Source: Escherichia coli
GTDB taxonomy: Bacteria; Pseudomonadota; Gammaproteobacteria; Enterobacterales; Enterobacteriaceae
Length of the DNA stretch: 64,000 nucleotides
NCBI RefSeq assembly: GCF_044324785.1
Contig: NZ_CP172127.1
Direction: 5' to 3' (one strand)
This document shows positions 24,001 to 27,000 of the stretch, in pieces; the first letter of the stretch is position 1; each line of letters opens with the position of its first letter. Position numbers: made by a program.

Positions 24001-27000
24001 TCAGCAGGACCGTAAAATTGAGTTGATTGTTAATAACATCGCGAACGTGCCGGAAGAGAACAACCACAGCCATGAAGCCAGCGCCCAGGCAGATGGCGTT
24101 GATGGTGTGGTGATGGATCTCGATGTAACCGACAGCTTTGGCGATAACACCGACCGCAACGGCGATGCGCTGCCGGAAGATAACCTCACGCCGCAGCTTT
24201 ACGACGCGCAGGACAAACGAGTGACGTTAACCAACAAGCCTTGCTCGACCGACAACCCCTGCGTTTTTATCGCTAAACAAGATAAAGAAAAGGGCACTGT
24301 CACCCTCTCCAGTACCTTACCCGGCACCTATCGCTGGAAAGCAAAAGCCGCGCCCTACGACGACAGTAACTATGTGGATGTCACTTTCCTCGGGACAGAA
24401 ATTGGTGGGCTAAATGCATTTATCTATCGTGTGGGGGCAGCTAAACCCAGCAACCTGATAGGTAAAGATAAAGAACCGCTGCCGCTCAACAACACTTATC
24501 GATTTGTTTTGTGGCGTGACAGCAATAAAGACGGTGTCTTCCAGCAGGTCGAAAAACTGACTGACGAAGAGATGGCGCAGTACGACTACAAGTGGGAATT
24601 TACCGGCAAGAGCATCAATGGTGAAGTGGGTGCACAGGCGAACACATCCAATGAGGACATTGTGATTCCGGCCACTAACCGCGAAGCGGCGCAAACCTAT
24701 GGCGCACAAGCGGGAGATGGCTTGCAGGGATACGGTTTACGCGTGCTGTATACCAAAAAATAAGATTGGCGTAAGGCCAGTCGGCCAGTCGCTGAAGGTT
24801 CATTAAGGAGAGCATCAATGAAGCAGGATAAAAGACGCGGTCTGACCCGGATCGCATTGGCGCTGGCATTGGCAGGTTATTGTGTGGCACCTGTGGCGCT
24901 GGCGGAAGACAGCGCATGGATAGATAGCGGAGAAACCAATATTTTCCAGGGGACCATTCCGTGGCTCTATTCGGAAGGGGGAAACGCTACGACAGATGCC
25001 GACCATGTAACGTTGACTTCTGATCTAAAAGGCGCTCGCCCGACAGGCAGTGAAACGGACAAGCGTCTTTACTCGGGTGATAAATTAACCGTAAGTTGGG
25101 AAATTGGTGATACCGAAGGCGACGTGGATCTTGGGGTATTGGGCGATAACGCAAAGACTATCGATACTATCCGCTGGATGAGCTACAAGGACGCTCAGGG
25201 TGGCGATCCGAAAGCGCTGGCAACGAAGGTGACCAGTTACACTCTTACCGATGACGACCGTGGTCGTTATATCGGTATTGAAATTACGCCAACCACGCAG
25301 ACCGGTACGCCAAACGTCGGGAATGCGCTGCATCTTTATGACGTTTCCACTGCCAGCGGCGGAGGAAGCGACAGTGACAACGTTGCGCCAGGGCCGGTAG
25401 TTAACCAGAACCTGAAAGTCGCCATCTTTGTTGATGGTACCAGTATCAACCTTATCAACGGCAGCACGCCAATCGAACTTGGCAAAACCTACGTGGCCAA
25501 ACTGTACTCGGATGAGAACAAAAACGGGAAGTTTGATGCGGGTACCGATGCTGACGTTACCGCCAATTATGACTTCCGTTGGGTACTTTCTGGCAGCAGC
25601 CAACAGCTCGGCACCTCGGCTGGTATCGTTAACTCAAGCTTCGATAATAACAATCTGGTCATCCCGAAAACCAACGACGAAGCCAGAACCAACCTTAACG
25701 GCCCTGCGCGCGATGGTAAAGAGGCTCTTACCATCCCGACAAACGGCGACGGGGTACAGGGGTACAAACTTCACATTATTTACAAACACAAATAACGCGT
25801 ACTCAGCAGCATTCCCGCAAGGGAATGCTGTTTCCGCATATTTTGCTTAATCCCGAATTAAGCAAAATATGTTGATGCGACAAGCGTCCGTTTAACAACC
25901 GGTGGAGTTTCTGTCATGTCCCTGACCCTGAATAAAATCCTTGTGTTATGCGCATTGCTGATAAGCGCAATGCTGCCTGGGTGGTCATGGGCAGAATCTG
26001 CATGGCAAGACTCTTCAGATACCGTAGGTGAATTTAACGGTACCGTGCCCACCGCCGACAGTGCCAGCATACCCGTCTACCAGGGCAGTGTTTTTCTGGA
26101 TCCTGCAAAGACGCATGAGGTAGCGTTTACCGCTAAACCGAGTGAATTTAGCGCGGATGTTAGCGTCTCTAAATTGCTCGTCACCAATCCGCAAGACAGA
26201 GAAGGCGATATCATTGCCACCCCACGTTGGGAAAACCAAACGCCACCGACAGTATCTTTAGTTTGGGCGGATGCAGCGACGCCGGACACCTTACTGGACC
26301 CACAGCCAGTCGCAGATCGCTCGTTTTGCGCTCAGGGACTTGCCGGGCGTTCGTTGATCGCCTGGGCGCAGCCAGACTCCCAGCAGACCATGCCTCTGTT
26401 ATATCTACTTACCTCGACGGGCTATCCCTATGAAAGTGTTCTGACGCTCGCCGATCAGAAAGTGACGCTGAAGATTGCGCCCGCGCAGGGTGACCTTATT
26501 TCCGTCAGCGCCGCGGGCTATGACGAATCCTCCGGTGCGGCGAAAACGACGGTTGGCGGCAGTATCACGTTAACGGTCACTACCAAAGATTGCGTCGGTA
26601 ATGTTGTGGGGAATATTCCTTTTGTTATCAAACGCAAAGATGCTGAAAACCGCCAGGGTGTGGTGAACAATACTGCGCCTGTAAAACTGGGCACGACCGA
26701 ATTAACCACCACCGCGACGGAATATCGTGGTACTACCGATGCGAATGGTGTTGCCACGGTTACGGTCACCCAGGCCAACGGCCCTGGTGTAAAAACGCCG
26801 TTGGTCGCGAGCCTCGCGGGTATTGCTCAGACCAGTGAAACGGCAGTGATCTTTACCGTCCTCACCAGCCCGGATGTCCCGCAGGCTACAATGTGGGGTC
26901 ATATGCCCGATACGCTGAAGGCCCGTGATTACACTTTTAGTCGACCAAAACTGGCGACGGAAGTCGATAATGAAGACGGTACGGTTAACGATCACAATGA

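Follow-up and report, generated by a model that had tools for sequence, protein, structure and literature searches.

In Escherichia coli, several hairpins located between or in front of genes are known to act on the RNA. At the rplL-rpoB junction, an RNase III site follows an attenuator, a hairpin is located in the rpsO-pnp leader, and the RNase III cuts in both have been mapped experimentally. In the adhesin operons pap and fan (K99), intercistronic stem-loops set the ratios of the subunits through partial termination and differential mRNA stability. Repetitive extragenic palindromic (REP) sequences and bacterial interspersed mosaic elements (BIMEs) can protect the mRNA upstream of them. Here we describe an element that invites comparison with these systems, found in a stretch of 64,000 nucleotides from an E. 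coli genome (NCBI RefSeq assembly GCF_044324785.1, contig NZ_CP172127.1; this whole stretch is called the window below). The window is 100% identical to the chromosome of E. coli strain N3. The window contains an island with the gene order sinH-sinI-ratA-like, inserted between der/yfgJ and xseA, and the 125-nt RNA between sinI and the ratA-like gene folds as two hairpins (z = -5.8 against shuffles): a terminator-like one just after sinI (hairpin 1) and a long palindromic one in front of the ratA-like gene (hairpin 2). Hairpin 2 is an undescribed, deeply conserved and locus-specific stem-loop, very probably a cis-acting one of the intercistronic mRNA, whose exact job we infer below.

By analogy, the locus may be arranged like the rplL-rpoB and rpsO-pnp ones, that is, as a gene, a leaky terminator, a long hairpin acting on the RNA, and a large gene reached by read-through. 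It is also like pap and fan (K99) in that a structured element lies inside an adhesin operon, between genes with very different product needs. Unlike those intercistronic stem-loops, which are conserved in structure only, hairpin 2 is almost invariant over its 8-bp centre and keeps its unpaired flanks across genera.

In the window, hairpin 2 is composed of a left arm, CATATTTTGCTTAAT (25837-25851), and a right arm, ATTAAGCAAAATATG (25857-25871), whose complementarity is 100% according to a repeat finder, and a 5-nt loop, CCCGA (25852-25856). The original prediction was of a perfect palindrome of 34 bp at 25837-25870 with the spacer CCCG; the perfect 15-bp arms stand, whereas the length and the spacer were one base short (35 bp and CCCGA). 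Its position, given as about 45 bp upstream of ratA, agrees with the 44 nt measured between the hairpin end and the ATG of the ratA-like gene. As RNA, the helix extends beyond the arms with a G25836:U25872 wobble, a C25835 x U25873 mismatch, and the pairs C25834:G25874 and U25833:A25875, giving a helix of 19 positions in which a single C x U mismatch separates 16 contiguous pairs from two further ones. At this stem base, the C:G pair is found in 23/23, the U:A pair in 20/23 and the G:U pair in 22/23 of the homologous sequences. Hairpin 2 is the longest close (hairpin-type) inverted repeat of the window: the expected number of such repeats with arms of at least 15 nt is 3.5e-4, and first-order Markov replicas of the window top out at 8-11 nt. 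No further copy of the 15-mer is found elsewhere in the window by a search allowing 3 mismatches.

Homologous islands were collected through alignment of the SinI protein with one genome per species, and islands of Salmonella, Kluyvera, Citrobacter and further E. coli were added by exact-protein look-ups. Comparison of these islands indicates that hairpin 2 is very probably a selected RNA structure of the sense strand. In a pair-by-pair table of 23 sequences, standard pairing is found in 95.7% of the cells, as against 33-48% in controls with slid partners, and double (compensatory) changes are found at 7 of the 18 pairs (35 cells), which was reached by none of 500 shuffles. RNAalifold independently yields the same helix. 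At the five outer and the two inner pairs, covariation is free: one of these pairs is U-A in 11 sequences, C-G in 8 and U-G in 4, and another is A-U in 8, G-U in 11 and G-C in 4. In the central 8 bp, UUUGCUUA paired with UAAGCAAA, there are two single mismatches in the original 23 sequences and a third in a sequence added later (L033). Escherichia albertii has a compensatory change from G-C to A-U inside the core together with a 17-nt insertion in the loop.

The strand on which the structure is selected can be read from the wobble pairs, since an A:C on the sense strand is a G:U on the opposite strand. The non-Watson-Crick cells of the sense strand comprise 57 G:U (35 when the constant G:U is excluded), 3 A:C and 12 others. 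Sense RNA is predicted to be more stable than antisense RNA in 21 of 26 loci (mean 4.2 kcal/mol; Wilcoxon p = 4.6e-5). Furthermore, a covariance model named R1, built from the 23 sequences, matches the window at 25830-25878 with 64.8 bits on the plus strand versus 42.6 bits on the minus strand. Over the loci, its scores are 48-69 bits on the plus strand versus 13-44 bits on the minus strand, and the advantage of the plus strand amounts to about 25-40 bits in the non-B2 loci.

These data bear on a proposal of the original prediction, namely that the palindrome is an operator of a dimeric regulator on DNA; such a regulator, for example an H-NS antagonist such as LeuO or a protein of SlyA type, would act on transcription of ratA. 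The perfect 15-bp arms and the invariant 8-bp half-site TTTGCTTA do look like an operator for a dimer, the B2-type sequence is without strand information, and the sinH orthologue iatB is activated by LeuO in E. coli SMS-3-5 (PMC6714894). Unlike in dimer operators, however, the spacing between the conserved half-cores TTTGCTTA and TAAGCAAA is 8, 9, 11 or 26 bp depending on the lineage and the loop sequence is free, which counts against a protein dimer on DNA because it would not tolerate such variation. The positions flanking the core covary for pairing rather than for sequence, G:T outnumbers A:C by 57 to 3 with the sense strand folding better, no promoter-like site is within reach, and the island has no regulator gene. 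Among known DNA-binding motifs compared informally (SlyA TTAGCAAGCTAA, the RcsB box, LysR T-N11-A and IHF), none fits the invariant core, and the part that resembles the SlyA half-site TTAGC/GCTAA is the variable part of the hairpin. The operator proposal is thus not supported by the spacing, the covariation, the wobble bias and the lack of a promoter-like site, and a DNA operator at this site is quite improbable. The other proposal, an RNA hairpin in the ratA leader, is borne out as a structure by the covariation, the strand bias and the covariance model with one sense copy per island; hairpin 2 may also control expression of the giant RatA protein, as was suggested with it.

In 310 kb of loci, the only matches of R1 are on the sense strand, exactly one in each island, and the model also recognises four islands outside its training set. 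In a metagenome scan with the bare core plus TTGA, 79 stretches were obtained, of which 47 score 56-68 bits and all lie beside sinI and/or ratA; the other matches score at most 30 bits and are AT-rich chance matches. Because of these island and metagenome results, the element is taken as a locus-specific sense-strand structure and not as a repeat family. Of 5426 complete E. coli genomes searched by blastn, 946 contain the palindrome, each at a single locus (two places per genome in the blastn output are both strands of one site). Most of these 946 records have the loop CCCGG, and a subset adds G25871A, which opens the outermost pair. The CCCGA loop variant of N3 is rare: an identity of 99% or more over the 45-nt query is reached by only 2 of the 946 records.

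Hairpin 2 resembles REP/BIME in being a palindrome, imperfect to perfect, that is located in an intergenic region between convergent or co-oriented genes. A repeat of REP type or of the miniature inverted-repeat transposable element type was rejected, the element being at a single locus per E. coli genome with one match per island in the 310 kb. Unlike the multi-copy REP sequences, which have a different consensus, hairpin 2 is single-copy and locus-specific, and a genuine REP-like insertion beside the copy of Escherichia sp. E1V33 (L011) shows the contrast. Or the palindrome could work as a single-stranded DNA hairpin on the lagging-strand template, or be a functionless relic of a mobile or REP-like element kept palindromic by hairpin-templated repair. 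DNA hairpins also tolerate G:T wobbles, the sense strand would be the lagging-strand template as judged from synteny with K-12, a palindrome can be lost cleanly (as in Citrobacter sp. R56, see below), and REP and Mu insertions are found immediately adjacent. Such an origin is nevertheless very improbable in view of the single copy per genome, the syntenic junction fixed across genera whose SinI proteins have diverged widely, and the lack of any associated transposase or HUH nuclease; the conserved unpaired flanks and the module formed with hairpin 1 also point to a function in the transcript.

The conservation expected by the original prediction for other sinH-ratA islands is found: hairpin 2 is present at the same junction in several species of Escherichia, Salmonella enterica, S. 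bongori, Citrobacter, Pseudocitrobacter, Kluyvera, Superficieibacter and another enterobacterium, and has been lost in Citrobacter sp. R56. The shared layout is the sinI stop, a GC-rich tetraloop hairpin with U3-5, CCG, hairpin 2, GUUGA, a spacer, the Shine-Dalgarno (SD) sequence and the ratA start, and the unpaired flanks UUCCG (5′) and GUUGA (3′) of hairpin 2 are conserved. The SinI proteins are only 40-48% identical between genera that keep hairpin 2 at this syntenic junction. In the island of enteropathogenic E. coli (EPEC) E2348/69, the intergenic flanks have drifted while the arms of hairpin 2 are kept with a compensatory change from U-A to C-G (CATAC...GTAT) and a different loop. In Lelliottia and Buttiauxella, whose sinH-sinI loci are more distant, both a ratA-like gene and hairpin 2 are absent, and the ratA-ratB junction of Salmonella is without the element.

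Insertions in two lineages fall between the two hairpins or inside hairpin 1, leaving the stretch from UUCCG through hairpin 2 to GUUGA untouched. One of them, in Escherichia sp. E1V33 (L011, 4552-4774), is REP-like, measures about 190 nt and comes with a second copy of the right arm of hairpin 1. The other, of about 45 nt, is found in Escherichia sp. MOD1 and a Shigella-labelled E. coli (L028 and L035). Both are located between hairpin 1 and UUCCG. In E. coli UPEC129 (L005, NZ_CP071522.1, 1-1500), the end of a Mu-like prophage with genes for a Mor activator and the gp16 family abuts the left arm of hairpin 1, at the equivalent of about 25808; the prophage parts sinI from ratA, and hairpin 2 is intact. 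The derivative of EPEC E2348/69 (L004, NZ_LT903847.1) has a divergent island in which the ratA-like gene encodes only 760 aa and a zinc-ribbon gene is located downstream of the ratA-like gene, beside xseA, instead of upstream of sinH. Leminorella grimontii (L022, 4985-5035) has a different long hairpin at this place, UUUUGAAAA...UUUUUCAAAG, with a nested stem and after a strong terminator, which may be a diverged analogue of hairpin 2.

Table 1. Features of the sinH-sinI-ratA island in the window.
Feature	Position	Strand	Description
Hairpin 2 (reported palindrome)	25837..25871	+	perfect 15-bp arms, 35 bp overall
Near-invariant 8-bp centre of hairpin 2	25842-25849 paired with 25859-25866		UUUGCUUA paired with UAAGCAAA; from conservation and covariation in 23-31 distinct homologous sequences
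Full conserved element	25833..25875	+	5′ flank UCCG, stem and 3′ flank UUGA
Hairpin 1, terminator-like	25805..25832	+	GC-rich 10-12 bp stem, GCAA tetraloop, 10 nt past the sinI stop
Spacer from hairpin 2 element to ratA ribosome-binding site	25876..25903	+	variable, largely unstructured
sinH	22556-24763		intimin-like inverse autotransporter
sinI	24818..25795	+	SinI family autotransporter-associated protein, 325 aa; open reading frame and RefSeq annotation of the N3 record
ratA-like giant gene	25916..33955	+	2679 aa, 'adhesion domain-containing protein'; open reading frame and RefSeq annotation

The genes and hairpins around the element are listed in Table 1. The earlier calls of sinI and the ratA-like gene are correct according to the RefSeq annotation. 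The ratA homologues of Salmonella, Kluyvera and Citrobacter contain BIg21/InvE_AD repeats by their Pfam content, and the SD sequence of the ratA-like gene is GGAG at 25904-25907. The terminator-like hairpin that had been noticed after sinI is likewise correct and is conserved in structure: compensatory changes are found in 8 of its 11 pairs, and its loops are tetraloops of GNRA or UUCG type. Its perfect arms are 25807-25816 and 25821-25830, the stem reaches 12 bp when folded over the whole of 25805-25832, and its tail is only UUU (25831-25833) followed by CCG. Because this U-tract is short, hairpin 1 is not flagged by a consensus terminator scan of the window, and for the same reason it is at best a leaky terminator.

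A scan for the sigma-70 consensus finds no promoter-like site between sinI and ratA in E. coli, Salmonella and Pseudocitrobacter; the sole sigma-70-like match of these scans sits within the start of the ratA coding region. Since no promoter-like site lies between the hairpins and ratA, ratA probably relies on read-through. The conserved TTGA after the stem was considered as a -35 element and rejected: none of the genera has a -10 at a distance of 15-19 bp, and transcription would begin at or beyond the SD sequence. A review that cites Shea et al. (2022) gives sinH and sinI as co-transcribed.

Hairpin 2 might itself be an intrinsic terminator and a second stop after sinI. The copy of Pseudocitrobacter vendiensis is flagged as terminator-like with the tail UGAUGUUUUG. 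In the window and most genera, however, the tail is GUUGAUGCG, GUUGAAUUA or similar and no U-tract follows, the stem is AU-rich, and the scan does not flag it in the window, so that a terminator function is scarcely credible.

The best explanation overall, to which we attach about as much belief as doubt, is an RNA stem-loop of the sinH-sinI-ratA transcript that lies behind a leaky terminator and serves in processing or in stability. Processing or stability as the mechanism of hairpin 2 specifically is a more tentative proposal, leaning to the doubtful side. On the simplest reading, the island would be transcribed as a single unit in which a leaky stop follows sinI, and ratA would be expressed from read-through. 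Hairpin 1 would be a leaky intrinsic terminator or attenuator that ends most sinH-sinI transcripts, and hairpin 2 would fold in the read-through transcripts as half of a two-hairpin module. Acting post-transcriptionally, it would set the level of ratA mRNA independently of sinH-sinI. Two options can be considered. Hairpin 2 may be a cleavage site for a double-strand-specific nuclease of RNase III type. Or, once the U-rich linker has been cut, it may serve as a stem that seals the ratA message at its 5′ end; because the helix closes at the linker, the message would then begin with an almost flush stem. The 8-kb ratA mRNA would take minutes for transcription and translation, hence the use of protection. 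The analysis itself shows the hairpin, its RNA signature on the sense strand, its exclusive position, the layout of the module and the lack of a promoter nearby; that hairpin 1 is read through, and that the RNA is cleaved or stabilised or the RatA level affected, are steps that we infer.

In vivo, double-cleavage sites of E. coli RNase III prefer the motif "WSSW", two G-C/C-G pairs flanked by A/U pairs, and the substrate length is about 22 bp (PMC6212723). The centre of the invariant core of hairpin 2, U-G-C-U paired with A-G-C-A, is a WSSW match, and the helix of 19 positions is shorter than the 22-bp figure. Unlike the hairpins of rplL-rpoB and rpsO-pnp, which have at least two helical turns on each side of the cut, hairpin 2 has about 19 positions with its centre 5 bp from the loop.

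Several points weigh against the processing or stability element. The WSSW centre lies only 5 bp off the loop, which is atypical for an RNase III site of about 22 bp. The near-invariance of the 8-bp centre exceeds what the structure needs, and cutting by RNase III fails to explain it fully because the sequence preferences of this enzyme are weak. The U-tract of hairpin 1 is 3-5 nt across the loci and is missing in EPEC E2348/69 and Citrobacter sp. Res13, and the leaky-terminator step is itself only a proposal. The B2-type copies of E. coli, that of the window included, are perfect palindromes with no strand signal of their own, and the strand call therefore rests on homologues from other genera. 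Finally, in Citrobacter sp. R56 (L018, 5400-5430) hairpin 2 is cleanly deleted (...GCATTTTTTGTTGAG...), with the flanking GCAT and GTTGA and the ratA-like gene being kept despite the loss, so that hairpin 2 is dispensable in at least one lineage.

The conservation of the centre far beyond the need of pairing, with a loop free to vary, can also be read as the mark of a protein-binding RNA operator or of a cis-acting antiterminator like put, in which a protein or RNA polymerase itself would recognise the helix centre together with the motif at the stem base. It would license the 8-kb ratA, and in Salmonella about 20 kb of ratA-ratB-shdA, against silencing of Rho/H-NS type. The non-canonical motif of G:U and C x U at the stem base is invariant, and two successive conserved hairpins stand directly before a giant horizontally acquired gene. 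The island leader contains no RfaH ops element, and another anti-polarity device would be useful for that reason. Like the HK022 put RNAs and EAR, the module consists of two adjacent stem-loops ahead of a long transcription unit, with stems conserved over loops. Unlike these, it has no sequence or Rfam similarity to them, and hairpin 1 is terminator-like and not an RNA polymerase-binding fold. Against such an operator or antiterminator it also speaks that no candidate binding protein is encoded in the island, that sequence-specific reading of a regular A-form stem is unusual, that similarity to Rfam families is nil, that the ratA-ratB junction of Salmonella lacks the element, and that Citrobacter sp. 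R56 dispenses with it. A boxA-like sequence, CGTCCGTTTAACAAC at 25885-25899, is confined to the B2-type E. coli island and is not found in EPEC, Salmonella or Citrobacter, and was rejected as a candidate; it resembles the rrn boxA, GCTCTTTAACAA. Altogether, we consider this operator or antiterminator unlikely. In a more novel reading, which is rather improbable, the two hairpins together would form a cis-acting RNA switch of a new class for giant adhesin genes, read by RNA polymerase or an RNA-binding protein of the core genome. If this were true, the switch would confer resistance to termination or a licence for translation, and ratA (ratA-ratB-shdA in Salmonella) would escape Rho/H-NS silencing only conditionally.

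The leader position of hairpin 2 raises yet another possibility, in which the structure tunes translation of ratA and has no role in cleavage or decay. It could shield the A-rich region where ribosomes load from structure farther upstream, or it could hold or stop ribosomes that arrive from sinI, as a standby or blocking element. Across the homologous islands, hairpin 2 is always located 30-50 nt before the ratA SD sequence and is followed by an unstructured stretch that is A-rich in most genera, and hairpin 2 has the sense-strand RNA signature. The SD sequence and the start codon are not sequestered by hairpin 2, however, neither arm has a conserved alternative partner in the ratA initiation region, the distance between hairpin 2 and the SD sequence varies, and the invariant core is left unexplained. 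Tuning of translation is likewise unlikely.

Other candidates were rejected. When the arms were compared with the ratA initiation region and with the 3′ end of sinI for pairing as in a riboswitch or attenuator, only weak matches rich in G:U were obtained, in the SD region, and none of them is conserved. A conserved mini-open reading frame or stop codon in GUUGA finds no support, since neither the reading frame nor the start codon is conserved and indels occur in the loop. An 8-nt match to stem-loop 2 of DsrA, UUGCUUAAGCAA (sequence confirmed), is non-extending, and the arms are locked in a hairpin of -18 kcal/mol, so that this match is regarded as chance.

A scan against Rfam 15 at E-values up to 10 gives only noise from miRNA and snoRNA families (12-18 bits versus thresholds of 37-95, E at least 2.9), and full-text searches of the literature found no description of hairpin 2. 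Hairpin 2 is represented by about 31 distinct sequences, shows compensatory changes and gives a clear strand signal, which makes it a clean candidate for a new RNA family, undescribed in Rfam and the searchable literature. The sinH-sinI-ratA island (CS54 in Salmonella) encodes factors for colonisation and persistence, and SinH is pursued as a vaccine antigen against extraintestinal pathogenic E. coli (PMC9937491, PMC12525524). The existing literature deals with the function of SinH, its use in vaccines and the control of the sinH/iatB promoter by LeuO (PMC6714894 for LeuO). Hairpin 2 would offer a mutable handle on the read-through from sinHI into ratA, on mRNA processing, and on the limits of expression of very long horizontally acquired genes.

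There are two further observations on neighbouring or related sequences. The sinH-sinI intergenic region (24764-24795) contains a small conserved hairpin, GATYGGC-loop-GCCRATC, directly past the sinH stop, which is absent from EPEC E2348/69 and S. bongori; it is followed by the conserved sequence GGCCAGYCGCTGA, and the motif GGCCAGTC is tandemly duplicated in N3. A 3.1-kb contig labelled as a metagenome-assembled genome (MAG) of Collinsella sp. (L006, JAIJJM010000381.1) is 97% identical to the E. coli sinH-sinI-ratA junction, hairpin included; it almost certainly comes from E. coli and was binned wrongly into this actinobacterial MAG.

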